This document shows, one piece after another, positions 8,181 to 24,452 of a stretch of DNA of 64,000 nucleotides. The position numbers were made by a program, and so were the translations under genes. Every line of letters begins with the position of its first letter. Within the stretch, counting starts at the first letter, position 1. Origin of the DNA: Phycisphaerales bacterium (lineage in GTDB: Bacteria; Planctomycetota; Phycisphaerae; Phycisphaerales; SM1A02); assembly GCA_965227335.1 (NCBI GenBank), contig CBDDFV010000001.1:771627-835626 (forward strand), in the 5' to 3' direction. Below the pieces are notes generated by a model that ran no database searches, was not told the origin of the DNA, and saw only the letters and a list, made by a program, of their open reading frames with translations.

Positions 8181-9920
8181 ATGCGCGCACGATGGATCAT
8201 GGCGGCGATCATGCTGCTCGCCGGCGTGGCGGACGCCCGCGCGGGCGACGTCGGCCCGCGTCTCGACGAAATGTGCCGCCGCGCCGAAACCCTCGGCTTC
8301 TCCGGCGCCGTGTTCTGCCTCGACGGCGATGAGGTCGTGCTGAAGCAGGGCTACGGACTCGCGAACCGCGATGAGAACCGCCCCGCGACTCCGGACACCC
8401 TCTTCGACATCGGCTCCCTCACCAAGCAGTTCACCGCCGCCGCCATCCTGCGTCTCGAGATGGACGGCGCGCTGAAGACGTCCGACACGCTCGATCGGTT
8501 CTTCCCCGACCTCCCGCCCGACAAGGCGGGGGTCACACTCCACCACCTGCTCACCCACACCAGCGGACTCAGCGTCATCGGCTCGCCCATGGCGCCCTCG
8601 TTTGACGAGAGCGTTAGCGCGGCCACCACGCGACGCGAAGAACTCGTCGATGCGTTCCGACTCGCGCCGATCGCCGCTCCGCCCGGCTCACGCTTCATGT
8701 ACTCCAACGCGGGCTACATGCTCCTCGCCGCCGTCGTCGAAGTCGCCGGCGAACAACCCTTCGAGACGTATCTGCGCGATCACCTCTTCGCCCCGGCCGG
8801 CATGACCGGGACGACCTTCTGCCAGGATCGCACCACCGCCGCCCCCGTCGCGATGGGCTACCAGGGCGACCGCGTCGTGAACAGCGCCGTCGACGGCTGG
8901 TATTCCTGGGGCCTGCGCGGCGCCGGCGGGTGCCTCTCGACACTCAACGACCTCATCCAATGGGAACGCGCCCTGCGGACTCACACGATCCTCTCCGCCG
9001 AAGCGACGGAAAGGCTCTTCACGCCCTTCCTCAACGACTACGGCTACGGCTGGTCGATCAACCGCACCGAGGAGAAGGACCTCCTCTGGATCAACCACGG
9101 CGGCGACACCCGCGGCTTCTCCGCCAAGTACTATCGCTGGCCCGAACTCAACCGCACCGTCGTCTGGCTGACCAACGATCGCGCCGTCGGCTACTTTCTG
9201 CCCACTCACCTCGCGTTCGCCGCCGCGCAGGAGACCCACGTCATGCCGCCGAAGGCGGCGGAGGTCGACAAGACGACGCTGGCGTCCATGGTCGGCGTCT
9301 ACGTCGCGGCGGCGGGCGTGCCGAAGATGCGTATCACCCGCGATGACCGAGGCGTCATCACGTGCGCGCTCGTCGAAACGCCACGCCGCGCCGACATGCT
9401 CGACATCGCGGTCGACGACACCCGTCGTCTGCTGCTCGCCCTTGATCTCGAGGATGTCGACATGCTCGAGGGCTACCTCGCGCCGCGCTGGGATCAGTAC
9501 GGCCGTTGGGCGGATCGTGCGCTGACCTACTGGCGGGACGAGGTTGTGCGGATGCACGGCGCGGTGACGAACATCTCGAATCCGGAGGTGGGGTTCGATC
9601 CGCAGACCGATCACATTCAGACCGCGGTCACGCTCACCCACGAGTCGGGCCGGCGCACCCGCTTCGGCTTCATGTGGGTGAACGGCCGCCTGCAGGGGTT
9701 TCAGGAGAACCCGCCGTGGCGACCCGCCGGCCGCGAAGTGGCGACGATGTCCGTCGGCGCCGTTCCCACCGATGCGCAGACGCTGACGCTCTGGGACCTG
9801 CCGATGATGCAGCCCGCGGGCACGCTGCGATTCGACGGCGACGCCGTGGTGTGGACCGATGCGGATGGAAGCACAGTGAATCTGCAACCGTCGGCCGGGA
9901 TCCCCTCCCGACAACCGTGA
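8181..9920 (+). CDS. serine hydrolase (beta-lactamase/PBP4*-like family)
   Basis: SxxK motif in IGSLTKQF. Signal-like N-terminus MRARWIMAAIMLLAGVADA. GAGGAGG SD upstream of ATG 8181. Confidence 0.8.
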   Translation: MRARWIMAAIMLLAGVADARAGDVGPRLDEMCRRAETLGFSGAVFCLDGDEVVLKQGYGLANRDENRPATPDTLFDIGSLTKQFTAAAILRLEMDGALKTSDTLDRFFPDLPPDKAGVTLHHLLTHTSGLSVIGSPMAPSFDESVSAATTRREELVDAFRLAPIAAPPGSRFMYSNAGYMLLAAVVEVAGEQPFETYLRDHLFAPAGMTGTTFCQDRTTAAPVAMGYQGDRVVNSAVDGWYSWGLRGAGGCLSTLNDLIQWERALRTHTILSAEATERLFTPFLNDYGYGWSINRTEEKDLLWINHGGDTRGFSAKYYRWPELNRTVVWLTNDRAVGYFLPTHLAFAAAQETHVMPPKAAEVDKTTLASMVGVYVAAAGVPKMRITRDDRGVITCALVETPRRADMLDIAVDDTRRLLLALDLEDVDMLEGYLAPRWDQYGRWADRALTYWRDEVVRMHGAVTNISNPEVGFDPQTDHIQTAVTLTHESGRRTRFGFMWVNGRLQGFQENPPWRPAGREVATMSVGAVPTDAQTLTLWDLPMMQPAGTLRFDGDAVVWTDADGSTVNLQPSAGIPSRQP

Positions 9921-9949
9921 GACACGTCCGCTCGCGGCGCCGGGTTCCG

Positions 9950-13969: not shown

Positions 13970-15862
13970 TCGCTTCTTCTTCACCTTCCGCCGGATCTTC
14001 TTCTTCCGCTTCGGCGGCGCCTCGTCGTCCCCGCCGAACAAGGTCCCGTTCACGGGCGCCTCGTCGTCGTCATCGGAGCCATCGCCGTTCCCGGTGATGA
14101 CGTCCCGCCGGTCCTCGACGATGATGACGTCGTCATCCTTCGCGAGACGCCCGCCGTCATCCACGACGTTGCCGTCCTCGTCAAGCACCTGGTCCGCCTC
14201 CTGCGTCCGACGTTGCGCCTGCCGCAGCAGCGCCTCGTACAGCGCCGCCGCGTCCGCCCCGGTGATGTCGTGGCACGCGGTCGCGATCTCGCCGATGTAC
14301 CGCTCAAAGATCGAACGACGCTCCGACTCCCGACGCATCTTCTTCCGCCGCCGCAGATACGTTCCCAGCTTGCGGCCGCACTCCTGCAGGGCGAGCTTCA
14401 TTTCCTTGCGGATGTCGTCGTAGTCGGCGATGGCTTCCTTCGACTCGCTCGTGAACGGCACCCAGACCGACGCCATGTGCACCATGATCACGAGCGGGCC
14501 CACCGGCAGCCCGCCGCGCGGCTGCGAGAGGTTGTAGTTCTTCCACCCCGTCTCGACCACCGCCTTGAAGGAGCAGCACGCCGACTGCTGATACAGCAGA
14601 GGCACCCGGTTCGCGAACCGCAGCACCCGCGCCGATTCATCGCCCGCCAGGGCGCCGCCGTACGCGATCGCGACCTCGATCTGGAACGGGTTTCCGCGAT
14701 ACACCGCGGGCGGACGCGTCGCCGCCGCGAAGAACTCCGCCTTTACTTCCTTGAGCAGACCCGCCAGCAACGCCCGCGACCCGATCGGGACGAGACAGTT
14801 GGTGGGGGGGTTGGAGATCCGCGTCTCCTGAATGGCGTCGTACAACGCCTCCGCCTCCGCGTGTCCGATCTGCTTCACCCACGAGCGGTTCGTCAGCTTC
14901 GCCTTCGTGCAGATCTCCTTCGCCTTCGTCGCCCCCACGCGGCAGAAGTCGTTCTGCAGGAACGCCCCGAGCTGCTTCGACTCCGTGCGCTCGATCATCT
15001 GGATCAGCGTGCCGAGTTCGATGCCCTTCGGATGCGGCTTGATCTCCGTCGGCTCCTCCGGCAGTTCGTCCACCGCCCGCGGAAACTCGATCGTCTCGTT
15101 CGCCGGCGTGATGTACGTGACCGACGCGTGCGGGTTCGCGATCGCCGTCTGCTCGAGATACTCGTCGATCGACTGCCGACCCTTCTGGTACCGGCCCTCG
15201 AGTTCGATCACCACCTGCGTGCCGTGCCCGTCCGGGAAGAGCGCATCGTCCTCCGGATGCTCCTGGTCCGAGACGATCTCCGCCTTGTTCTTCATCGTGT
15301 CCATCTTGAGGCGGACTTCGTGGGCCGGCTTGCGCTTCGACGTCTTGGAGATGATCAGCACCGGCTTCCCGGTCGTCATCAATCCGTACATGCCCGCCGC
15401 CGAGATCCCGATGCCCTGCTGGCCCCGGCTCATCTTCATCCGGTGGAACTTCGAGCCGTAGAGCAGCTTGCCGAAGATGTTGTCGATCTGCTTCCGCACG
15501 ATCCCCGGCCCGTTGTCCCGAATCGTGATCTTGAACCGCGTCTCGCTGAGCTGCAGCACCTGCACGAAGATCGTCGGCAGAATCGACGCCTCCTCGCACG
15601 CGTCAAGGGCGTTGTCCACCGCCTCCTTGATCGTGGTCAGCATCGCCTTCCGCGGATTGTCGAACCCGAGCAGGTGACGGTTCTTCGCAAAGAACTCAGA
15701 GACCGAGATCTCACGCTGCTTCGCCGCCATCGACTCCGCGGTCGCGGCGGTCCGGGCCTTCTTCTTCCGCGTCGGTGCGCTCGACTTCCCGTCGCTCTTC
15801 GTCGTTGGCTTCTTACCCATGCTGGATCGGGACGCGTCGGCGGCGGGGGTCAGGGTGGTCAT
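13967..15862 (-). CDS. top6B: DNA topoisomerase VI subunit B
   Basis: 631 aa. GHKL/Bergerat fold and transducer motifs read directly: SVSEFFAKNRHLLGFDNP, EAVDNALDA, IRDNGPGI, SRGQQGIGISAAG, RFANRVPLLYQQSACC, VHMASVWVPFTSESKEAIA. GGAG SD 7 nt upstream of ATG 15862. Confidence 0.9.
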   Translation of the reverse strand: MTTLTPAADASRSSMGKKPTTKSDGKSSAPTRKKKARTAATAESMAAKQREISVSEFFAKNRHLLGFDNPRKAMLTTIKEAVDNALDACEEASILPTIFVQVLQLSETRFKITIRDNGPGIVRKQIDNIFGKLLYGSKFHRMKMSRGQQGIGISAAGMYGLMTTGKPVLIISKTSKRKPAHEVRLKMDTMKNKAEIVSDQEHPEDDALFPDGHGTQVVIELEGRYQKGRQSIDEYLEQTAIANPHASVTYITPANETIEFPRAVDELPEEPTEIKPHPKGIELGTLIQMIERTESKQLGAFLQNDFCRVGATKAKEICTKAKLTNRSWVKQIGHAEAEALYDAIQETRISNPPTNCLVPIGSRALLAGLLKEVKAEFFAAATRPPAVYRGNPFQIEVAIAYGGALAGDESARVLRFANRVPLLYQQSACCSFKAVVETGWKNYNLSQPRGGLPVGPLVIMVHMASVWVPFTSESKEAIADYDDIRKEMKLALQECGRKLGTYLRRRKKMRRESERRSIFERYIGEIATACHDITGADAAALYEALLRQAQRRTQEADQVLDEDGNVVDDGGRLAKDDDVIIVEDRRDVITGNGDGSDDDDEAPVNGTLFGGDDEAPPKRKKKIRRKVKKKR

Positions 15863-15992
15863 GCGGGAGCTCCATCTCCGTCAGATCGGCCGGATCCCTC
15901 CGACCGCTGCACAGCGTACCGCATCCCGCGGCTTCCGGCCTCCGCCCCCGGCCCCGACCGGCCAGCCCGATTGCAACCTCCCGGCCGGACCC

Positions 15993-15998
15993 TATCCT
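15993..15998 (+). promoter_or_regulatory. -10-like box TATCCT, 6 nt upstream of abgT ATG
   Basis: TATCCT-cgcggc-ATG. No SD. Confidence 0.4.
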
Positions 15999-16004
15999 CG
16001 CGGC

Positions 16005-17801
16005 ATGAGCGACCTCAATCCCTCCGACCCGCTGCCCTCGCCCCCGCCCGCCGATGAGCCGAAGAAACCCTCCGGCTGGTTTGCGAAATTCCTCGCCGTC
16101 GTGGAGTGGCTCGGCAACTGCCTGCCCCACCCCGTCACGCTGTTCTTCCTGTTCGCGGTCGCCATCGTCATCCTCTCCGGACTCGCCGCCTACTTCGACC
16201 TCACCGTCCTCGACCCCCGGCCGGAAGGCTCCCGCGGACGCGCGGCGGACGGGATCATCCGCGTCAACTCGCTCATGTCCGGCGAAGGCGTTCGCTGGAT
16301 GTTCCAGAATCTCGTCTCCAACTTCGTCGGCTTCGCCCCCCTCGGCACCGTCCTTGTCGCCCTCCTCGGCGTCGGCGTCGCCGAACGATCCGGACTCCTC
16401 AGCGCCATCATCCGCAAGATGATCCTCGCCGCCCCGCCGTCGCTCGTCACCGTCGTCATCGTCTTCGGCGGCGTCCTCAGCAACACCGCGTCGGAAATGG
16501 GCTACGTCGTGATCATCCCGCTCGCGGCGGCGGTGTTCTATTCCATCGGACGCCATCCGCTCGCCGGACTCGCCGCCGCGTTCGCCGGCGTCTCCGGCGG
16601 CTACAGCGCGAACCTCGTCATCGGCACCGTCGATCCCCTCCTCGCCGGGATCACCCAGGAAGCCGCCCGCTACATCGACCCCGCCTACGAAGTTCACGCC
16701 GCCGTCAACTGGTACTTCATGGCCGTCTCCGTCCCGATGATCACGGTCATCGGCACGTGGGTCACCGCGAAGATCGTCGAACCCCGCCTCGGCAAGTACG
16801 ACCCCGCCCTCGCCGACGAATCCGTCGAGAAGAACCCGAAGCTCGAACAGCTCACCTCCGCCGAAGTGCGGGGCCTCAAGTGGGCGGGCCTCGCCACCCT
16901 CGTCGGCATCCTCTTCATTGTCTACCTCGCCGGACCGCAGGCCACCGCCGCCGTCGGCGTCGACGACCTCGCGGCGGTCAAACATGACCAGCTCTGGACC
17001 CAGGTCGATCTCGACGCCGCGCCGAAGATGGACGACAAGGCCGTCTACAACGCGCCCGTCGCCGAGGGGCTCGGCGGCTTCGTCAACAAGATCGTCCTGA
17101 ACATCCCCGGCTGGGGCGTCCTCCGCGACCCCGTCAACAACGCCCTCATGCCCTCGCCGTTCCTGCGCAGCGTGGTCGCGATGATCTTCATCTTCTTCAT
17201 CCTGCCCGGATTCGTGTACGGCCGGGTGGCGGGCACGATGAAGAACGACGAGGACATCATCAACGCCATGGCGCACCAGATGAACACGATGGGGCTGTAT
17301 ATCGTGCTCGTGTTCTTCGCCGCGCAGTTCGTGGCGTTCTTCGGCTACACGAATCTCGGACAGATTCTCGCGGTGCTGGGGGCGGACGCGATCCGGGCGA
17401 TGAATCTCGACAACCCGCTCGTCTTCATCCCGTTCATCCTGATGTGCTGCTTCGTCAACCTCATGCTCGGCAGCGCGTCGGCCCAGTGGGCGGTGACCGC
17501 GCCGATCTTCGTCCCCATGCTCATGACCGTCGGCTACACGCCCGAGGTGATCCAGGCCGCGTACCGGATCGGCGACTCCACGACGAACATCATCACCCCC
17601 ATGATGAGCTACTTCGGACTCATCCTCGCCTTCGCCGTGAAGTACGACCGCAAGCTCGGCATCGGCACCCTCGTCGCCACGATGCTGCCGTACTCGATCT
17701 GCTTCCTGCTCGGCTGGATCGTCCTGTTCTACACGTGGGTCTTCCTGCTCGGGATCCCGGTCGGTCCCGGGACCGAGATTCTCTACACGCCCGGCGGCTG
17801 A
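16005..17801 (+). CDS. abgT: AbgT family transporter (p-aminobenzoyl-glutamate/antimetabolite transporter family)
   Basis: Polytopic membrane protein. N-terminal WFAKFLAVVEWLGNCLPHPVTLF and overall architecture typical of AbgT/MtrF/YdaH. ATG 16005 (MSDLNPSD) lies 6 nt after a TATCCT box. Confidence 0.85.
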   Translation: MSDLNPSDPLPSPPPADEPKKPSGWFAKFLAVVEWLGNCLPHPVTLFFLFAVAIVILSGLAAYFDLTVLDPRPEGSRGRAADGIIRVNSLMSGEGVRWMFQNLVSNFVGFAPLGTVLVALLGVGVAERSGLLSAIIRKMILAAPPSLVTVVIVFGGVLSNTASEMGYVVIIPLAAAVFYSIGRHPLAGLAAAFAGVSGGYSANLVIGTVDPLLAGITQEAARYIDPAYEVHAAVNWYFMAVSVPMITVIGTWVTAKIVEPRLGKYDPALADESVEKNPKLEQLTSAEVRGLKWAGLATLVGILFIVYLAGPQATAAVGVDDLAAVKHDQLWTQVDLDAAPKMDDKAVYNAPVAEGLGGFVNKIVLNIPGWGVLRDPVNNALMPSPFLRSVVAMIFIFFILPGFVYGRVAGTMKNDEDIINAMAHQMNTMGLYIVLVFFAAQFVAFFGYTNLGQILAVLGADAIRAMNLDNPLVFIPFILMCCFVNLMLGSASAQWAVTAPIFVPMLMTVGYTPEVIQAAYRIGDSTTNIITPMMSYFGLILAFAVKYDRKLGIGTLVATMLPYSICFLLGWIVLFYTWVFLLGIPVGPGTEILYTPGG

Positions 17802-17810
17802 TGGCGCGCG

Positions 17811-18539
17811 TCAGACCGGGGCCGCCGCGTCGCCCAACGCCGCGCCGACGCGATCTCCGACGTCACGCTGTCCCGCCGTCCCGACCACGAGGTCCTGGCG
17901 CACCTCCAGCTCGATCCCGAGGTACCTCGCCGGGTCCAGCCGCTGACGCAGGGTCGTCGTGAGTCCGTCCGAATCCCCGCGGTACGGCTGGTTGAAGGGA
18001 CATCGCCAGTTCGGCCCCGCCGACCGCAGCGCCTTCCGCCACCGCTCGGCGAACGCCAGTTCATACGGCCGCGCTTCGTCAAACAGCAGCGCGACCTCCA
18101 GTTCGCGCGTCCTGCCGTTCAATGACTCGGTGCAGGAATGCACGCCCACATGCAGCACCCGGTGACCGGCGCGCAGCGCGGCGTCGATCGTGCGCTCCAC
18201 ATTCGCCCGGTACGGTGCGTAGTACCCGCCGACGATCGACGCCCGCACCGTTTCCGACACATCCCGGGTGTACACGCTGAAGACGTCCGGCTGATCGAGC
18301 GACCGGTTCAGATCGACGAGCAGACGGGTGACGGTCGAGAAGATGATCGGCGCCGACCGCCGCGCGGCGATCCGAAGCCCGACGCCCAACGCGCCGATGT
18401 CGCTGCCGCGATGCGTCGCGAGATCCGCTTCCGCCCCGCGGAACAGATCGACGTACGGGGCGGGAACGTCGCGTCCGCCGTGCTCGCAGGTCAGCAGGAT
18501 GAACGACGGCCGCCACGTCGCGGGCGTCTCACGGGGCAC
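17811..18539 (-). CDS. N-formylglutamate amidohydrolase family protein
   Basis: 242 aa. FILLTCEHGGRDVP N-terminal motif of the FGase family. GTG start overlaps the upstream GCS2 stop by 11 nt. Confidence 0.75.
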   Translation of the reverse strand: MPRETPATWRPSFILLTCEHGGRDVPAPYVDLFRGAEADLATHRGSDIGALGVGLRIAARRSAPIIFSTVTRLLVDLNRSLDQPDVFSVYTRDVSETVRASIVGGYYAPYRANVERTIDAALRAGHRVLHVGVHSCTESLNGRTRELEVALLFDEARPYELAFAERWRKALRSAGPNWRCPFNQPYRGDSDGLTTTLRQRLDPARYLGIELEVRQDLVVGTAGQRDVGDRVGAALGDAAAPV

Positions 18540-19788
18540 GGAAGAGCTCCCCGCGGTCGAGACAGTCGCCGAGTTCGCGGTAGACGTCCTGCAGTTCCGA
18601 ATGCGTCGGGAAGCGCCGGATACACCGACCGATCCGGTTGGCGAGCGTCCCCGTGCGCAGCATGCGACGCAGGAGCGGCGTCCAGGTCGGATCGTCCGGC
18701 AGCAACAGCTCCTGCAACCGGATCCACAGATCGCCCGCCCACATCATCGACTGCGACACGCCGAACGCGTCCAGCACCGTCCGCTCCCGGATCCGGGTGC
18801 GGTCCGCGTACCGAATCGTGTCGAGCAGCACCCCGTGCAGCAGATCCGTCGCGACCTGCTGCTGATCAGACCACGACAACCAGCGCTCCTCCACGACCGC
18901 CCGCACCACCGCCGTGACCAGCGCGACGATCGCAAGATCCGCGGCCGGACACTCCTGGATATCGAGCACCCGGATCTCGATCGCCCCCCGGTCGAACCGC
19001 GCCATCGCCCCCCGCGCGTTCGCGAACTCGTGGCGAAGGACGCCGTCGGGATCGTGCGGCCGCAGGTCGTCGTACAGCCGCTCCAGAATGTCGCGCTCGT
19101 ACGCGGCCCGCGTGAACACGGGCTCGGGGACGACCAGCCCCGTCATCATCGGGATTCGCGCGGCGTTCGTGCGGTACACCTCCATCCGGTGACATGAGAT
19201 CGGCGACCAGCGCCCCGCCACGATCGGCGAACTCGCGGCCAGCGCCGGCAGCAGCGGCAACACCAGGCGGAGCGCCGCGTGCAGTCGCCCGAACTCCTCG
19301 TCATTCGCGAACGGCAGATTGACGTGCGTGCTCTGCAGATTGCCCCAGCCGTGGCCGCGACAGCCGAAGATGCGGTCGTACGTGCGATAGATCTCGTTGT
19401 TCTCGTGCGGCCAGAGCCGGGTCTCGCGATCAGGATCCATCCAGGGATGCATCGCGGTCGGCAGGAGCCGCGCGCCCAGCGGGGCGAGCAGATCGTTGAC
19501 GCGACGCACGTGCCGCTGGAACTCGTCGATCAGCCCGTCCAGCGTCGCCGCCGGACGCTGCGTCTTCAGTTCGACCACGTGCAGGGCGAGTTCGTTCGAC
19601 CACGCAATGCGTCCGTCCGGACCGTCCGGCTCGACGTCCGACGCCGACCCGCCCGTCGCCGCCTCGAAGAGCTGGTCGCAGATCGGACGCACGTCGAGCG
19701 TCGCCCGGTCGACGATCATGTACTCCAGCTCCACGCCCGCCGCGTCGAAGAGACCGAGCGGATATGACCAGTCGGCGGCGGGACTCAT
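18529..19788 (-). CDS. carboxylate-amine ligase (glutamate--cysteine ligase family 2, YbdK-like)
   Basis: Real start is MSPAADWSYPLGLF (ATG 19788), which overlaps the upstream stop as ATGA. GVELEYMIVD and STHVNLPF motifs. The remaining 334 aa of the 753-aa track ORF are an out-of-frame readthrough over the upstream gene. Confidence 0.8.
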   Translation of the reverse strand: MSPAADWSYPLGLFDAAGVELEYMIVDRATLDVRPICDQLFEAATGGSASDVEPDGPDGRIAWSNELALHVVELKTQRPAATLDGLIDEFQRHVRRVNDLLAPLGARLLPTAMHPWMDPDRETRLWPHENNEIYRTYDRIFGCRGHGWGNLQSTHVNLPFANDEEFGRLHAALRLVLPLLPALAASSPIVAGRWSPISCHRMEVYRTNAARIPMMTGLVVPEPVFTRAAYERDILERLYDDLRPHDPDGVLRHEFANARGAMARFDRGAIEIRVLDIQECPAADLAIVALVTAVVRAVVEERWLSWSDQQQVATDLLHGVLLDTIRYADRTRIRERTVLDAFGVSQSMMWAGDLWIRLQELLLPDDPTWTPLLRRMLRTGTLANRIGRCIRRFPTHSELQDVYRELGDCLDRGELFRAP

Positions 19789-21230
19789 CGCGATTCGATC
19801 CTTCGCAGGAAGTGCTGCATGACGCGACGGTAGAGATCGTCGCCGGCCGCGGCGTCCTCGACGCCGGCGTCGATGTTCGGATTGTCGTTCACCTCGATCA
19901 CCACCGGCCGGCCGCGCACGATCTTGAGATCGACCCCGTACAAACCGTCGCCCATCAGGTTGGCGGCGCGGATCGCAAGACGCACCACGTCCTGCGGCGC
20001 CGCGTCCGTCGGCATCGTCTCGCTGTCGCCCTCGTGCACGCCGGCGTCGTCGCGCCGGACGATCTGCCAGTGGGCCGGGGCCATTCCGTACCGGCACGCG
20101 TACAACGCCGACCCCCCGAGCACGCCGATCCGCCAGTCGAAGTCCGTGGGCACGTACTCCTGCGCGACGAGCAGATCGCTGCCCTCGAAGAACGTGGCGA
20201 GCATCGCCGGGGCCGACGCCTCGTCGTCGCACCGCGACACGCCCGCCGAAAACGAACTGTCCGGCCGCTTCAGCACGCACGGGAACCCGAGCGAACGCAG
20301 ACCGTCCATCGCGTTTTCCTTCGACAAGATCAGCGTGCGCGGCGTCGCAATCCGGTGACGCGCCATCGTCTCCGCGAGGTACACCTTGTTCGTACAACGG
20401 ACGATCGACACCGGATCGTCCATCACCGCCAGGCCCTCCGCCTCCGCCCGACGCGCAAATCGATACGTGTAGTGATCCACCGAAGTCGTCGACCGGATGA
20501 ACAACGCGTCGTACTCCGCGATCCGACCGTAGGCGTCCCGGCGAATCAGGTCGCATGCGAGCCCCAGGGATTCGCCCGCCGCGACGAAACGACGCAGCGC
20601 CTCCGCGTTCGACGGCGACGTGGCTTCGTCCGGGTCGTGCAGGATCGCGAGGTCGAACCGAGTCGCGGCCGGCGTCCGGCCGCGGCGCGGCGCCCGGCGG
20701 AGGTACCGTTCCGCCTGCTCCGCGATGAACGGCCAGTGCGACTCCGGCGCATCGCCCAACCCGATCACCCGCACCGAGCTGAGCTTCCATTCGCCGTTCC
20801 GTTCGAATCGCGCGCGGAGCAACGGGGCCGGAAAGGCGTTGAAGATCGCGGTCGCCAGCCGATCATGCCTCGCCGCCAGATTGTGCCCGAAGTAGATGCT
20901 GAGTTCGAACCCGGCCGACCGGATCGGCCTCAGGCTCGACTGAATCAGGTCTTCGAAGTCCTGCGAGACGATCTTCACCACCGGGGCGAGACGCAGATCC
21001 TGGATCGCCGTCACCGACGGCAGCGGACGATGGCCCCGCGCTTCCGCCAGCAGCGAAACGTAGTACCCCGCCGCCTGGTAGCGGAACGAGCGACAGAGAT
21101 TGAAGACCTTGCGCCCCGGCGCCCCCGCCCACGTCGGGTCGGAGAGATAGGCGTACGACGACACCACCTCCGTCCCGGGAATCTCGAGCGGCCATCGCGT
21201 CGGGTGGTCGACGACCAGCAGCGATGTCAT
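19785..21230 (-). CDS. RimK-like ATP-grasp ligase with N-terminal RLAN-type domain
   Basis: 481 aa. C-terminal ATP-grasp (FPCVLKRPDSSFSAGV, LLVAQEYVPTDFDWRIGVLGG, GVDLKIVRGRPVVIEVNDNP). About 200-aa N-terminal domain with FRYQAAGYYVSLLAEARGH. ATGA overlaps at both ends. Confidence 0.85.
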   Translation of the reverse strand: MTSLLVVDHPTRWPLEIPGTEVVSSYAYLSDPTWAGAPGRKVFNLCRSFRYQAAGYYVSLLAEARGHRPLPSVTAIQDLRLAPVVKIVSQDFEDLIQSSLRPIRSAGFELSIYFGHNLAARHDRLATAIFNAFPAPLLRARFERNGEWKLSSVRVIGLGDAPESHWPFIAEQAERYLRRAPRRGRTPAATRFDLAILHDPDEATSPSNAEALRRFVAAGESLGLACDLIRRDAYGRIAEYDALFIRSTTSVDHYTYRFARRAEAEGLAVMDDPVSIVRCTNKVYLAETMARHRIATPRTLILSKENAMDGLRSLGFPCVLKRPDSSFSAGVSRCDDEASAPAMLATFFEGSDLLVAQEYVPTDFDWRIGVLGGSALYACRYGMAPAHWQIVRRDDAGVHEGDSETMPTDAAPQDVVRLAIRAANLMGDGLYGVDLKIVRGRPVVIEVNDNPNIDAGVEDAAAGDDLYRRVMQHFLRRIESR

Positions 21231-22036
21231 GGACCGGACGCCTCGTCACGCGGTTCAATCACCAGCATGTTCGCATCGTACGTCAGCACCCCGAGCATGA
21301 TCGCCGGCGTCAGACGACTCATCGACATCACGTAGTGCTGCGTGGAGAAACCCGGGTTGTGGGCCAGCGGATCCGCGACCGTCACCTGGCGGCGCTTCGG
21401 ATCAAACCCGTGCAGCACCACGAAGTGACCGGTGGGAAAGCCGCGAATGTCGTCGTAATCGTCATTCGGACCGAACTCCCTCGCGCACCGGTAGAGATAC
21501 GTCGCGCTCAGCCCCGTCAGCACCGGCCGCCCGCTCCGGATGAAGCCGGCGATCAGACGGGTCGTGAGATCGCGGAACCGGATCGCCCCGCCCCGACGCA
21601 GAAACTCCAGATACGACGCCGTCGCGACCGGAAACCGCGGATCGTCCGTCCGCTTCGCCTCCGCCTGCGCCTCCAGACGATCCATGAGCGCCGCCGCCGA
21701 GGCGTCGCCGTGCGCATCGAACCAGGTGGGGTCGAAGATCTGCAGGTTGAAGGTGTACAGCGCGGCGTCATACCCGCGGCTCAACGCGTGGTTGCCGAGC
21801 ATGACCGCCAGCGTCCCCCGCCCCGCCCCCAGCGAGCGCACGGATTCGATGACCTCGTCCAGACCAACCCGCTCGCCAAAGTAGCGATAGACCGCATGCA
21901 GACACGTCGGTCCGCAGGTCTCGTCGTCGGGCTGCGGCATCATCTCCACCGGCAGGACCGCGGGCAGACTCGATGTGCGATCCCGGGACACAGGCGAAGA
22001 TGAACCGGACTCGGGTGCTGGGTCCCGCTCAGTCAT
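21227..22036 (-). CDS. C39-like papain-fold cysteine peptidase
   Basis: Start MTERDP (ATG 22036, GGAG 11 nt upstream). Q-x5-C in QPDDETCGPTCL, and His/Asp in GHFVVLHGFDPKRRQVTVADP. Confidence 0.7.
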   Translation of the reverse strand: MTERDPAPESGSSSPVSRDRTSSLPAVLPVEMMPQPDDETCGPTCLHAVYRYFGERVGLDEVIESVRSLGAGRGTLAVMLGNHALSRGYDAALYTFNLQIFDPTWFDAHGDASAAALMDRLEAQAEAKRTDDPRFPVATASYLEFLRRGGAIRFRDLTTRLIAGFIRSGRPVLTGLSATYLYRCAREFGPNDDYDDIRGFPTGHFVVLHGFDPKRRQVTVADPLAHNPGFSTQHYVMSMSRLTPAIMLGVLTYDANMLVIEPRDEASGP

Positions 22037-22081
22037 GAAGACGAACTCCGGCGACGGTCCGATGCGGTCGCACGCCGACGT

Positions 22082-22087
22082 ATTGTA
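22082..22087 (-). promoter_or_regulatory. -10-like box TACAAT upstream of the four-gene ligase cassette
   Basis: Minus strand TACAAT, 45 nt upstream of ATG 22036 and followed by GGAG. Lies in the 73-nt gap after the antiporter stop. No good -35. Confidence 0.35.
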
Positions 22088-22109: not shown

Positions 22110-24452
22110 TCAACGCTCCCGCGACGCCCGGATGCTCGCCACCCGGATCGCGGCCAGAACGTCCGCCGGCGCCGATGACTCGTACACCATCGCCCGCGTC
22201 TCGTCGTCAATCATGCACCGCGCCAGCTCCGCCAGCGTCGCCAGGTGACCCTCCGGATCCCCCGGCGGACTCAACAGCAGAAACACCAGACGGATCGGCT
22301 CGCCGTCCGGCGACGGCGTCTCCAGCGGCGAACGCAGCCGCGCCAGTCCGCATAACCGACGATCCAACCCCTCCACGTACGCGTGCGGAATCGCCACCCC
22401 GTTCCCGATCGCCGCGGGAAACGTCGACTCACGCTCCATCAGATCATGGATCGTCGCCTCGCGCGGCGTCCGCGGTTCGATCTTCACCACCTCGTCCATC
22501 AACGCCGACAACACCGCCTCCAGATCCGCCGCCGTCGTCAACGACAGAATCAACGACGGATGCAGACTCCGCGCCAGGTAGTCCGCCCGACGACGCAGGA
22601 ACAACACCCGGTCGTCATCCTTCGCCCCCGCCAACGCTTCCTCGCTCGGATCCAGCACCAGACGACCGTCCAGCACCGCCGCGATCGCCGCCGCGTCACC
22701 CGACGCCGCCGGGTCGCGGGGGGCCGCCTCGAACACCGCCGCCTCCCGACGACTCAGTTCGCCCGAAATCAACGACGGGCGCGGCAGACGCTTCCACACC
22801 AGCACGCCGTTCTGCGCATCCTGCGTTTCCTCCCCGTCCGCCGCCACCGGATTGCACCGATACGTGTTCGTCGACCCGACCACCCCGCGCCACGCCTGGC
22901 AGACCCGGACGTTCAGATCCTCATTGTCCGTCAGGGCCAGCACCCGGCCGATCGGATGAAACTCGGTCCGCTCCTGCAACGCGTTGTCACGCGCGTCGCC
23001 GACGAACGCCGTCAGATCCTCCCGACGCGCCTCCTGCACCGCCCGGCCGTTCGTGTCGACGATCACCACCGGCACCTCCAGCGCCCGCTGCAGGAAAGAC
23101 GCCACCCGGCGCGCAAACTGATTCGCCCCCACGATCATCCAACCCACCGGCGGCGATCGACGCACGTGCAGCAGCTTGGCGAGCACGCCGGCCGTGCCCC
23201 CCTGGATGAAGATGGTGGCGATGATCATCGAATAGACGAACGTCTCGACAAACGTCCCGTACGCCGCGCGATCCGCGTTGAAGTTCACCGAGTCCGGCGC
23301 CCCCGCGGACTGCGCGATGCTCAACGCGAACAAGGACGCCATCGACGCCGCCACGATCCCGCGCGGCCCGACCCAGGCGAGGAACACCTTTTCGTTGAGC
23401 GACAGATCCAGACCGATCGAACACAGGAAGATGCTCAGCGGACGCACGATCAACATCACCGCGACCACGGTGACGACGCCCGTCCATCCGAACTCGACGA
23501 ACTGGGCCACGCTCAGCCGCGCGGAGAGCAACACGAAGAGCGTCCCGATCAACAGATCGATCACCTCCGACTTGAACTCCTTGACCTGCTTCGCTTCGAA
23601 GGAGCCGCCCGCCGCGAATACGAACCCCGCCGCCGTCACCGCCAGCAGACCCGCCTCCGCGATCACGTACTCCGCCAGAATGAAGAACGCGACCGCGAAC
23701 CCCACCGCGCCGACATTCAGCATCGACTCCGGCAGCAGCTTGCGCCGCGTCAGGAAGATCAGCAACAGGCCGCCGACGACGCCGATCCCCAGCCCCGACC
23801 CCACCCGCAGGGCGAGGTTCATCACCGCCTCCAACCCCGTCTCGTCCACGACGACGTACTCGAAACACAACAACGCAATGAAGACGCCGATCGGATCGAT
23901 CAGCACCCCCTCCCAGTGCAGCACGTTGTGCAGACGAGACGACACCCGGATGCGCTTCAGCAACGGCCCGATCACCGTCGGACCCGTCACGATCACCAGA
24001 CTCGCCGCGAGAAACGCATACTCCCCCGGAATCCGACCCCCCGTCGAGCACCGCGCCAGCAGCCAGATCAGCAGCGCGGCGCCGAACCACGTGATCATCA
24101 CCCCGAACGTCAGCAGCCGCCGAATCATCGTCGGCGCCTCGCGGTACCCCTTGATGTTCAGCGTCAGCCCGCCCTCGAACAGGATCAGGCCGATGCACAT
24201 CGCCACGATCGCCCGCAGACCGTCCCCCAGGGTCTTCGGATCGACCCACTCGAGCCGGCCCGGACCCAGCAGAAACCCGCCGATCAGCAACAGCACGATC
24301 GCCGGCAGACCCGCCAGACGCGCCGCCGTGATCAGCAATGCACCCGCCGCGATCGCCACGCCGAACGTCATCAGCATCTCGTGCGCCGGGTCGGCGTCCG
24401 CCGCCGCCAGCACCCACATCCAGCCGCCCGTGATGTCGCCAAGCCATGTCAT
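22110..24452 (-). CDS. CPA1-type cation:proton antiporter fused to an RCK/TrkA-N-like domain and a PTS EIIA type-2 (Ntr-like) domain
   Basis: 780 aa. About 420-aa polytopic Na+/H+ exchanger region, a central WMIVGANQFARRVASFL...VVIVDTN Rossmann-like segment, and C-terminal EIIA-2 with AIGNGVAIPHAYVEG (phosphorylatable His). Confidence 0.85.
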   Translation of the reverse strand: MTWLGDITGGWMWVLAAADADPAHEMLMTFGVAIAAGALLITAARLAGLPAIVLLLIGGFLLGPGRLEWVDPKTLGDGLRAIVAMCIGLILFEGGLTLNIKGYREAPTMIRRLLTFGVMITWFGAALLIWLLARCSTGGRIPGEYAFLAASLVIVTGPTVIGPLLKRIRVSSRLHNVLHWEGVLIDPIGVFIALLCFEYVVVDETGLEAVMNLALRVGSGLGIGVVGGLLLIFLTRRKLLPESMLNVGAVGFAVAFFILAEYVIAEAGLLAVTAAGFVFAAGGSFEAKQVKEFKSEVIDLLIGTLFVLLSARLSVAQFVEFGWTGVVTVVAVMLIVRPLSIFLCSIGLDLSLNEKVFLAWVGPRGIVAASMASLFALSIAQSAGAPDSVNFNADRAAYGTFVETFVYSMIIATIFIQGGTAGVLAKLLHVRRSPPVGWMIVGANQFARRVASFLQRALEVPVVIVDTNGRAVQEARREDLTAFVGDARDNALQERTEFHPIGRVLALTDNEDLNVRVCQAWRGVVGSTNTYRCNPVAADGEETQDAQNGVLVWKRLPRPSLISGELSRREAAVFEAAPRDPAASGDAAAIAAVLDGRLVLDPSEEALAGAKDDDRVLFLRRRADYLARSLHPSLILSLTTAADLEAVLSALMDEVVKIEPRTPREATIHDLMERESTFPAAIGNGVAIPHAYVEGLDRRLCGLARLRSPLETPSPDGEPIRLVFLLLSPPGDPEGHLATLAELARCMIDDETRAMVYESSAPADVLAAIRVASIRASRER

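Follow-up and report, generated by a model that had tools for sequence, protein, structure and literature searches.

The window, by which we mean the whole 64,000-nucleotide stretch of Phycisphaerales DNA that was analysed, carries on its minus strand (17811-22036) four genes that form a real operon, with an order that is kept across at least 12 bacterial phyla. Read directly from the strand, a C39-like Cys peptidase is followed by an RLAN+RimK-type ATP-grasp ligase, a GCS2 ligase and an FGase-like enzyme, a tightly packed set in which two enzymes form amide bonds at the expense of ATP and two hydrolyse them. With about even confidence, we read the cassette as one that would make and turn over a small N-blocked peptide or amide with a terminal Glu.

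Gene junctions and upstream signals

The preliminary description of this DNA had listed four minus-strand genes joined by two ATGA overlaps and one overlap of 11 nt, and a direct read found all three in place (Table 1). The GCS2 start at 19788 is supported by M1, which is near-invariant in alignment A3. No in-frame start other than the GTG at 18539 lies ahead of the conserved LLTCEHGG motif of the FGase-like protein, and GGGGAG stands 7 nt upstream of this GTG. Strict stoichiometric coupling, which had been proposed from the overlapping stops and starts, may hold. The TACAAT box and GGAG described ahead of the first gene are both there, but the promoter call has a -10-like hexamer as its only element. 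Since a sigma-70 scan upstream of the peptidase gene found no two-hexamer promoter and a same-strand gene ends only 73 nt upstream of the cassette, a promoter is not established.

Table 1. Features of the cassette, in positions of the window.
Feature	Position	Strand	Basis or detail
C39-like papain-fold Cys peptidase/amidase	21227..22036	-	ATG 22036 to TGA 21227, 269 aa
RLAN + RimK-type ATP-grasp amide ligase	19785..21230	-	481 aa; Pfam RLAN + RimK
RLAN domain	20718..21152	-	aa 27-171 of ligase; Pfam
Catalytic ATP-grasp region	19803..20522	-	aa 237-476; TIGR00768 rimK_fam and PDB alignments to RimK
GCS2-family (glutamate-cysteine-ligase-like) carboxylate-amine ligase	18529..19788	-	419 aa; Pfam GCS2
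FGase-family (N-formylglutamate-amidohydrolase-like) amidohydrolase	17811..18539	-	242 aa, GTG start; Pfam FGase
ATGA stop/start overlap, peptidase/ligase	21227..21230	-	read from sequence
ATGA stop/start overlap, ligase/GCS2	19785..19788	-	read from sequence
11-nt overlap, GCS2 stop/FGase GTG start	18529..18539	-	read from sequence
GGAG, Shine-Dalgarno-like	22046..22049	-	9 nt before peptidase ATG
TACAAT, putative -10-like hexamer	22082..22087	-	present in sequence

Conservation of the cassette and its variants

We compared 80 related loci, and the denominators given here are evaluable loci. The peptidase gene precedes the ligase gene in 66/75 and GCS2 follows the ligase in 59/73, both neighbours being present together in 55 of 69; FGase follows GCS2 in 38/58. 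The cassette was found in Leptospiraceae, Desulfobulbaceae, Chitinophagales and others. A spacing of -4 (ATGA) is the commonest junction at both the peptidase/ligase boundary (64 relatives) and the ligase/GCS2 boundary (50 relatives), and the divergence of the four families is correlated (Mantel r 0.58-0.70, with 0/300 permutations as high). This arrangement is far beyond chance. The earlier idea of a co-conserved four-gene unit thus stands for order and adjacency but not for the number of genes, FGase being often absent.

The flanks of the related loci are otherwise unrelated and hold no conserved extra ORF of at least 70 aa. The preliminary description had seen no precursor-peptide ORF; a search of the relatives, reaching 600 nt from the cassette, likewise found no small ORF (12-80 aa) that is conserved. 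No carrier-protein gene or transporter is conserved near the cassette, no Rfam element or riboswitch is present, and none of the 80 loci shows a candidate protein target associated with the operon. The window neighbours AbgT, Na/H exchanger, DinB and TopoVI-B recur in none of the other loci, bar one weak, partial match to the Na/H exchanger (locus L005).

Sister systems carry a GNAT acyltransferase, fused or adjacent, in place of GCS2. GNAT-RLAN-ATP-grasp fusion proteins exist, GNAT adjoins the ligase in Nevskiaceae loci, and in Azospirillum a GNAT+DUF3335 (C39-like) fusion gene overlaps the start of the RLAN-ligase gene. These GNAT partners are most similar to RimI. One locus (L028) has a class-II amidotransferase-type hydrolase at the FGase position. 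Solitary RLAN-ligases, with no partner within 6 kb, occur in P. aeruginosa and Aeromonas, so the ligase cannot universally depend on a GCS2 product. From these variants, peptidase plus ligase is the core met most often, the second enzyme that forms an amide is either GCS2 or GNAT, and FGase is an optional member.

Comparative genomics of RLAN-type RimK-like amidoligase neighbourhoods was reportedly carried out by Iyer, Abhiman, Burroughs & Aravind 2009 (Mol Biosyst 5:1636); that work is said to be the source of Pfam RLAN PF14401 and to consist of prediction only. Its set reportedly comprises RLAN+ATP-grasp proteins with a papain-like peptidase, GCS2, FGase or GNAT, so that the window cassette is a typical member and shows no architectural difference. 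That GNAT-fused DUF3335 papain-like domains were treated in that survey is confirmed by PMC10318531. Our literature searches found no experimental paper and no characterised product for the cassette, in keeping with the earlier statement that no product or substrate had been identified.

Family assignments and catalytic residues

All four family assignments first made by eye score above the curated Pfam cut-offs. The catalytic motifs quoted with them were all found in the translations, and the catalytic or ligand residues, described as intact, are conserved across phyla.

The peptidase, to which a public 269-aa protein (P0001) is identical, matches Peptidase_C39_2 (42.7 bits against a cut-off of 24, E 1.1e-10) and, weakly, Peptidase_C39. 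Its predicted catalytic residues Q35, C41, H204 and D222 do not vary among 45 close homologues and reach at least 93% conservation among 65 diverse ones; a helical insert spans residues 100-170 or thereabouts. The AF2 model (pLDDT 78.8) gave as top Foldseek matches the C39-like protein 3erv, the PeiR isopeptidase and the ComA/PCAT1 C39 domains, with weaker matches to phytochelatin synthase (PCS; E ~3e-3) and CtaG (E ~9e-3, TM-score 0.31 normalised to the query). The precursor processing ascribed to C39 peptidases in the preliminary description fits this protein poorly, as there is no precursor, no ABC-transporter fusion and, by eye, no evident signal peptide. The characterised papain-fold partners of ATP-grasp ligases are amidases or transacylases on small substrates (PMC7183216).

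The 481-aa ligase (identical to P0121) matches Pfam RLAN (144 bits against 25, E 3.6e-42) and the RimK domain (32.3 bits against 21, E 9.8e-8). The closest solved structures, Pseudomonas RimK, E. coli RimK and LysX, align to its C-terminal half only; TIGR00768 rimK_fam covers residues 237-453 (E 1.8e-21), and the GVD...IEVNDNP motif (D434, E446, N448) aligns with GVD...EVN of RimK. The RLAN family (761 clusters at 50% identity) has the near-invariant motif N44-L-C-R...Y51-Q...G55-Y-Y-V-S-L-L-A-x-A-R65-G-H...P71. In a set of 150 representative homologues R65 and P71 never vary, N44, G55, Y56, Y57 and S59 exceed 97%, and Cys46 is kept in 125/145, being Ser in Azospirillum.

The GCS2 protein (Pfam GCS2, 100.5 bits against 21, E 1.5e-28) has E20, E22, E66, H70, H155, N157, E271 and R273 invariant in 26 diverse homologues; its sole PDB link, made with a profile, is a plant Glu-Cys ligase (E 9e-4). 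The FGase-like protein belongs to a family of zinc amidohydrolases (Pfam FGase, 82.6 bits against 28.9, E 5.9e-23; PDB 2odf, Atu2144, E 1.5e-20) and conserves E19, H20, H43, R44, N78, R79, H130, H134, E210 and E212. All four cassette proteins score below the cut-offs of the characterised equivalogs (RimK, LysX, GshA/B, YbdK, HutG), so specificity could differ from Glu.

Proposed chemistry and alternatives

Drawn from family chemistry, the preferred reading is a self-contained four-enzyme amidoligase/amidohydrolase module, in which inspection by eye showed no signal peptide, that would make and turn over a small glutamate-containing, amide-linked product from a starting substrate encoded outside the operon. 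The GCS2 ligase would join gamma-Glu to X, an amino acid or small amine, at its free amine and so produce gamma-Glu-X; in sister systems this amine would instead be blocked by a GNAT acyltransferase. The RLAN+RimK-type ligase would then turn the alpha-carboxylate of the N-blocked substrate into an acyl-phosphate and add at least one alpha-linked L-Glu, as the characterised enzymes of the RimK family are all known to do. The C39-like enzyme, which accompanies the ligase more often than any other and would be coupled to it in translation, would attack one amide through a Cys41 thioester, either as a hydrolase that trims or erases (compare RimB for RimK, and glutathionylspermidine synthetase/amidase in its amidase half) or as a transpeptidase (compare phytochelatin synthase, BtrH and CtaG). 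The optional FGase-like enzyme would cleave an N-acyl-glutamate bond, the kind made by a RimK-type ligase, and so would release Glu. The suggestion first made from the sequence, that a small Glu-containing peptide or a protein tag is ligated and trimmed in steps, is plausible. The GNAT fusions and adjacency, the Azospirillum GNAT+DUF3335 gene and the L028 hydrolase support a small-molecule substrate and GCS2/GNAT alternation.

Chemical precedents are offered by GshA/GshB, Gss, NAAG synthase and HutG. Two-step glutathione synthesis uses a GCS2-type GshA and the ATP-grasp GshB, with phytochelatin synthase or glutathionylspermidine synthetase/amidase as the papain-fold partner. The cassette likewise pairs a GCS2-family gamma-glutamyl ligase with a GshB/RimK-superfamily ATP-grasp and a candidate papain-fold Cys enzyme acting on the product, PCS being among the peptidase's structural matches. 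Unlike that system, it scores far under the GshA, YbdK and GshB equivalog cut-offs and carries no sign of a thiol substrate; the host taxa may also carry normal gshAB. RimK-family ligases also glutamylate small cofactors, as do MptN and, on the polyglutamate tail of methylofuran, MyfB; no enzyme has yet been named for the branching of that tail (PMC8141765). The cassette ligase is an ATP-grasp like the alpha-L-Glu ligases MptN, CofF and MyfB, and MptN is its third-best NCBIfam match, but these lack RLAN, the cassette scores below their cut-offs, and Leptospiraceae, Desulfobulbaceae, Chitinophagales and others that carry the cassette are not known for the H4MPT/methylofuran pathway.

The main alternative, though rather unlikely, is that the system reversibly modifies a protein, the RLAN-RimK ligase placing Glu on the C-terminus or a side-chain carboxylate of a conserved housekeeping protein encoded elsewhere. 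GCS2 would cap or branch the tail or, PafA-like, conjugate it to an amine through the gamma-carboxylate, and the C39-like peptidase and FGase would be erasers. The closest solved or curated relatives of the ligase, RimK (on S6) and LysX (on LysW), act on proteins, RLAN could serve in target recognition, solitary RLAN-ligases parallel the solitary rimK of E. coli, and a housekeeping target agrees with the lack of an operon-encoded substrate; against this, no candidate target is linked to any locus and the ligase scores 39 on the RimK equivalog, whose cut-off is 331. FGase and GCS2 members of assigned function act on small molecules, and GNAT/GCS2 alternation is easier to read as N-blocking of a small amine. 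The precedent is RimK/RimB, a writer-eraser pair (PMC12239564). In Pseudomonas this pair, like E. coli RimK, concerns poly-alpha-L-glutamylation of ribosomal protein S6, with a trimming protease. The cassette ligase is also a RimK-family ATP-grasp with conserved Mg/ATP motifs and an adjoining, plausibly counteracting peptidase, but that peptidase is of papain/C39 rather than retropepsin fold, and an extra 190-aa RLAN domain and the GCS2 and FGase genes are present. Papain-fold or C39-like enzymes more often act on peptides, isopeptides or proteins (the top structural matches include PeiR and ComA), and the GNAT partner is nearest RimI and the ligase nearest RimK, both ribosomal-protein modifiers; these points, the solitary ligases and the unreached equivalog cut-offs count against a small-molecule product.

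Still less probable is a natural-product-type pathway in which the papain-fold enzyme is an amide-forming transacylase that moves a ligase-built acyl or peptidyl group to the final acceptor, giving an oligomer or conjugate such as a phytochelatin-like (gamma-Glu-X)n-Glu. Papain-fold transacylases are experimentally known to work with ATP-grasp ligases in amide assembly, as in closthioamide (CtaG/CtaD) and butirosin (BtrH) (PMC7183216). The cassette resembles CtaD/CtaG and BtrJ/BtrH, which perform non-ribosomal amide assembly, in pairing an ATP-grasp with a C39/BtrH-like Cys-His-Asp enzyme whose triad is intact, but it lacks a decarboxylase and its ATP-grasp falls in the RimK clade. The precedents are thiotemplated, yet no carrier-protein gene accompanies the cassette and RLAN Cys46, a possible built-in thiol, is not universal; PCS and CtaG are among the structural matches but are weaker than the hydrolytic C39-like proteins. 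A RiPP or bacteriocin system with leader-peptide processing of the C39 type, suggested only by the Pfam name, or incidental adjacency of unrelated genes is highly improbable and effectively refuted by the conserved order and ATGA junctions across at least 12 phyla and by the lack of a precursor ORF, ABC transporter or double-glycine peptide nearby.

Under the preferred reading of a small N-blocked, Glu-terminated product, the compound would be similar in class to glutathione, N-acetyl-aspartyl-glutamate or the glutamyl tails found on cofactors.

Layout of the cassette and family assignments

The cassette consists of four consecutive minus-strand genes, as listed in the table. Two ATGA overlaps and an 11-nt overlap had been reported in the preliminary description, and reading the minus strand returned all of them exactly at the positions claimed. 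The chosen starts of the peptidase and ligase genes are supported by identical public proteins of 269 aa (P0001) and 481 aa (P0121), and the start of the GCS2 gene by its Met1, which is near-invariant in A3, our alignment of GCS2 homologues. A TACAAT box (22082-22087) and a GGAG (22046-22049) are both found upstream of the peptidase gene as described. A sigma-70 scan detected no two-hexamer promoter upstream of the cassette, and the upstream gene on the same strand stops just 73 nt away; for these two reasons we leave the promoter as a candidate. Co-transcription of this Na+/H+ exchanger fusion gene with the cassette is possible.

Coordinates of the cassette genes (minus-strand readings), their window neighbours and one related gene, with Pfam matches
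Feature	Coordinates	Strand	Product and remarks	Pfam match
C39-like peptidase	22036-21227	-	269 aa	Peptidase_C39_2, E 1.1e-10
RLAN+ATP-grasp ligase	21230-19785	-	481 aa	N-terminal: RLAN, E 3.6e-42, 144 bits (cut-off 25); C-terminal: RimK ATP-grasp, E 9.8e-8, 32.3 bits (cut-off 21)
GCS2 ligase (second ligase)	19788-18529	-	419 aa	GCS2, E 1.5e-28, 100.5 bits
FGase-like hydrolase	18539-17811	-	242 aa, GTG start	FGase, E 5.9e-23, 82.6 bits (cut-off 28.9)
Na+/H+ exchanger + TrkA_N + PTS EIIA-2 fusion	22110-24452	-	780 aa, directly upstream, 73-nt gap	
AbgT-family transporter	15819-17801	+	E 2e-201, N-terminal extension of ~90 aa	
GNAT adjoining ligase, Nevskiaceae (locus L065)	9473-9928			

All four family assignments scored above the Pfam curated cut-offs in profile searches. 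No cassette protein reached the cut-off of the NCBIfam equivalogs of characterised enzymes (RimK, LysX, MptN, GshA, GshB, YbdK). The ligase scored 39.3 against a cut-off of 331 for NF007764 and 76.8 against 143.4 for TIGR00768, both RimK models. Scores for the GshA/YbdK models were 56.4 against 332 (NF010041), 54.3 against 176.4 (TIGR02050) and 30.9 against 249 (TIGR02048), and that for the GshB model NF003573 was 16.5 against 272. The FGase-like protein had no NCBIfam match at E < 0.01 and thus no HutG equivalog match. Among solved structures, the ligase finds relatives in RimK and LysX through its C-terminal half, and the FGase-like protein matches Atu2144, a functionally uncharacterised protein. 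The sole match of GCS2 is the plant Glu-Cys ligase (E 9e-4, by profile search only), and the peptidase has no significant solved-structure match by sequence.

One protein carries RLAN N-terminal to a RimK-type ATP-grasp domain, its papain-fold C39-like neighbour has an intact Cys-His-Asp triad, and GCS2 provides a second amide-forming enzyme in the same operon. This architecture belongs to the RLAN-type amidoligase neighbourhoods, which were reportedly predicted in a comparative-genomics survey of 2009 (Iyer). Since the domain association was noted before, the cassette will be no surprise to the specialist.

Conservation, flanks and variant loci

The cassette is a genuine and widespread operon, orphan as far as experiments go, and a full-text literature search found no published function for RLAN or for the four-enzyme combination. 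When relatives were scanned with one genome per species, at least 593 stretches, out of 600 pattern matches, were found to encode relatives of the ligase. The best 80 of these were analysed as loci, with composition scored by family HMMs and tblastn as a second view. Judged by record title, these 80 include Planctomycetota, Pseudomonadota, Desulfobacterota-type deltaproteobacteria, Myxococcota, Nitrospirota, Nitrospinota, Tectomicrobia, Bacteroidota, Gemmatimonadota, Krumholzibacteriia, Sumerlaeota and Leptospiraceae (Spirochaetota), with Legionella and Thiobacillus among the proteobacterial carriers.

The co-occurrence and order of the genes hold in these relatives. By family HMMs, the peptidase lies immediately upstream of the ligase in 66 of 75 evaluable loci and GCS2 immediately downstream in 59 of 73; both flank the ligase in 55/69, and FGase follows GCS2 in 38/58. 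The commonest junction is -4 (ATGA), at the peptidase/ligase and ligase/GCS2 boundaries alike. The four families diverge in a correlated way: comparing their matrices of pairwise identity gave r 0.58-0.70, a level reached in 0 of 300 permutations. With the RLAN region as query, 1.84 billion representative proteins yielded 761 clusters (50% identity); for the peptidase family the count exceeds 7,500 clusters (90% identity). Recent horizontal acquisition of the cassette was rejected: GC is 65-69% across the region, as in the flanks, with no compositional anomaly.

Clustering of the other ORFs in the 8-kb flanks of the 80 loci gave none common to more than 4 loci, and no conserved ORF of at least 70 aa. 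The preliminary description had seen no precursor-peptide ORF, and the search extended to relatives agrees: no small ORF (12-80 aa) within 600 nt of the cassette is conserved, except among near-identical relatives. A precursor peptide or carrier protein beside the cassette was rejected on these results, no conserved extra ORF of at least 12 aa that could be a carrier protein (PCP/ACP) adjoining the cassette. Neither an ABC transporter nor hut genes are conserved neighbours in the 80 loci. A riboswitch or leader RNA was likewise rejected, as neither the window cassette nor any of the 8 loci searched matched Rfam. Because no conserved ORF, small ORF or Rfam element was found in these searches, the cassette is a self-contained unit whose substrate is not encoded alongside.

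The neighbours of the cassette in the window are AbgT, the Na/H-exchanger fusion, DinB_2 and TopoVI-B; they were not found in the other loci, save for one weak partial Na/H-exchanger match (111 aa, 40% identity) in L005. The AbgT gene converges on the FGase gene with 9 nt between the stop codons, and transporters of this aminobenzoyl-glutamate type have N-acyl-glutamate as substrate. Since none of the 80 related loci has AbgT, its position here is incidental, and a functional link with the cassette was rejected. The topoisomerase VI subunit B homologue of this Phycisphaerae genome (13967-15862, minus strand) carries an acidic stretch and, after it, a C-terminal tail rich in Lys/Arg (...PPKRKKKIRRKVKKKR).

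Several loci depart from the common arrangement. In those from Nevskiaceae and Solimonas, a 151-aa GNAT comes after the RLAN-ligase, and peptidase and GCS2 are both missing. GNAT-RLAN-ATP-grasp fusions in a single chain occur among the 761 RLAN clusters (e.g. P0347, 646 aa), and their GNAT scores best with RimI in NCBIfam. That these fusions are the NAGGN synthase Ngg, whose model we take to be TIGR03103 (a GNAT + ATP-grasp NAGGN dipeptide synthase), was rejected: no Ngg-type family is found among 25 of the 26 NCBIfam families listed for P0347, nor among all 11 NCBIfam matches of the window ligase. On replicon p1 of Azospirillum brasilense Sp7 (L083, 4763-7470), a 408-aa fusion of GNAT and DUF3335 (C39-like) overlaps the RLAN-ligase start by 1 base. 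According to PMC10318531, DUF3335-GNAT fusions were discussed in the 2009 survey. Legionella adelaidensis has the arrangement ligase-GCS2-FGase, and solitary RLAN-ligases exist in P. aeruginosa and Aeromonas. In locus L028 (3757-4545), a class-II glutamine-amidotransferase-type (GATase_4) hydrolase directly follows GCS2, in the usual FGase position; L032 and L054 have further members of its ORF cluster close to the cassette. The GATase_4 family includes EgtC/YafJ-like enzymes.

These variants therefore point to a core pair with exchangeable partners. The pairing met most often is that of the C39-like enzyme with the RLAN-ligase. GCS2 and GNAT appear to be alternative second amide-forming enzymes, GNAT substituting for GCS2. 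FGase is an optional hydrolase, for which other hydrolases may stand in.

The solitary ligase of P. aeruginosa (L081, NZ_CP133752.1, 6902-8491) is a 529-aa RLAN-RimK protein, and none of the peptidase, GCS2 and FGase genes is found within 6 kb of it. A Glu/Asp ABC transporter and a gamma-glutamyltransferase (ggt) are encoded a few genes away. A full-text search for PA1345, which we take to be the PAO1 locus tag of this gene, gave incidental mentions and no functional literature. In the planctomycete locus L071 (6770-7900), an alpha/beta-hydrolase (S33/S9-like) stands in the peptidase position, directly upstream of the RLAN-ligase; by eye, its hydrophobic N-terminal stretch looks membrane-spanning.

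Catalytic residues, the peptidase fold and the RLAN domain

In all four proteins, the catalytic and ligand residues are conserved at 93% or more in 37-81 diverse homologues. These are Q35, C41, H204 and D222 in the peptidase; K282, K321, D434, E446 and N448 in the ligase; E20, E22, E66, H70, H155, N157, E271 and R273 in GCS2; and E19, H20, H43, R44, N78, R79, H130, H134, E210 and E212 in the FGase-like protein. Like C39 leader peptidases of the PCAT type, the cassette peptidase has the Gln oxyanion residue and Cys-His-Asp in a papain fold. The ligase keeps the ATP-grasp Mg/ATP motifs, D434, E446 and N448 aligning with the GVD/EVN metal-binding motif of RimK. As for HutG, the FGase-like protein has an FGase-family fold with conserved His/Glu/Asn-Arg ligand positions. 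Conservation of these catalytic residues suggests that all four enzymes are active.

The best PDB matches of the peptidase AlphaFold2 model (pLDDT 78.8) were C39-like 3erv, the pseudomurein endoisopeptidase PeiR and the C39 domains of ComA and PCAT1, while phytochelatin synthase and the transacylase CtaG were weaker matches.

In the RLAN domain, R65 and P71 are invariant and N44, G55, Y56, Y57 and S59 near-invariant, whereas Cys46 is conserved in 125 of 145 sequences and replaced by Ser in Azospirillum. A built-in thioester carrier at Cys46 was rejected since the Cys is not universal, and, judged from these alignments, the conservation fits a binding site better than a catalytic thiol. The AF2 model of the RLAN region (ligase aa 1-197; 20640-21230, minus strand) had a pLDDT of 74 and a pTM of 0.58. 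Its top Foldseek matches were the ATP-grasp enzymes LysX, RimK, PruB, ITPK1 and PPIP5K2, with query-normalised TM-scores of 0.5-0.6, and by eye KVFNLCRS..GYYVSLLAEARGH, the RLAN motif, and KIAILSRD..LYSCKRLREAAIQRGH, at the N-terminus of RimK, look alike. From the model, RLAN may be a degenerate pre-ATP-grasp-like duplication. However, hhalign gave a probability of 0.8% against the ligase's own C-terminal half and 0.1% against E. coli RimK, and a profile search of the PDB gave noise only. We therefore did not adopt the duplication and record it as a passing observation.

Possible function of the cassette

The RimK-family enzymes characterised to date all, to our knowledge, couple a carboxylate of their substrate to the amino group of Glu or of a close analogue. 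In GCS2 enzymes it is the gamma-carboxylate of Glu that is linked to an amine, and FGase cleaves an N-acyl-glutamate amide by hydrolysis. Examples of RimK-family and related chemistry are found in PMC8141765 and PMC12239564. The alternation of GNAT and GCS2 suggests, as the first step, a blocking of the amine on a small substrate X by acetylation or gamma-glutamylation. The RLAN-ligase would then add an alpha-linked Glu to the blocked substrate, and the Cys enzyme and FGase would remove or transfer the added units. Precedents of two kinds are known. One is the writer/eraser pair, as in RimK/RimB (PMC12239564) and in the ligase and amidase halves of glutathionylspermidine synthetase; the other is the papain-fold transacylase that acts with an ATP-grasp ligase, as do CtaG and BtrH (PMC7183216). 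Small-molecule ligation and trimming is the reading we favour, at about even odds; its product could be a new peptide of low molecular weight, glutathione-like or phytochelatin-like. A role in building the cofactor tail of methylofuran or H4MPT was rejected, as it would not fit the taxonomic spread of the cassette.

The cassette is alike in working to RimK/RimB, to GshA/GshB with a papain-fold partner and to the MptN/MyfB cofactor glutamylases, but lies below their curated thresholds. With RimK/RimB as writer/eraser precedent (PMC12239564), the enzymes might instead maintain a reversible glutamylation tag on a protein, which we consider somewhat unlikely. In one such scheme the target would be a conserved protein encoded elsewhere: RLAN-RimK would be the writer of a C-terminal Glu tail, GCS2 would serve to branch, cap or conjugate that tail via a PafA-like gamma-glutamyl isopeptide, and the erasers would be the C39-like isopeptidase and the FGase-like enzyme. 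We regard this particular scheme as unlikely.

A biosynthetic transacylase or oligomer pathway has its models in CtaG and BtrH, papain-fold transacylases that work with ATP-grasp ligases (PMC7183216). The match of the peptidase model to CtaG (9qvk) is weak (E 9.4e-3, query-normalised TM-score 0.31) and ranks under hydrolytic C39-like proteins. We hold such a pathway to be improbable. The thiotemplated CtaD/CtaG and BtrJ/BtrH pathway has a carrier protein, whereas the cassette is without one and is therefore not of the CtaD/CtaG type. PCAT-type C39 systems have a transporter and a double-glycine precursor; the cassette peptidase is a stand-alone protein without either, and so the cassette is not such a system. 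We effectively exclude both a RiPP/bacteriocin role and a chance adjacency of the genes.

The preliminary description of the cassette was thus accurate, and its interpretation, a peptide/amide ligation-and-trimming system, is reasonable and unproven. As a compact orphan enzyme set, the cassette is well suited and tractable for work aimed at finding new functions. Were its role solved, four large families of "hypothetical" proteins would gain a function together, and the outcome would be either a new metabolite based on glutamate (osmolyte, thiol or cofactor tail) or a new bacterial protein modification. The two ligases are candidate biocatalysts for the synthesis of defined alpha/gamma-glutamyl peptides. 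If a protein encoded elsewhere is the substrate, the cassette would represent a widespread bacterial "glutamylation code" in at least 590 species of at least 12 phyla.
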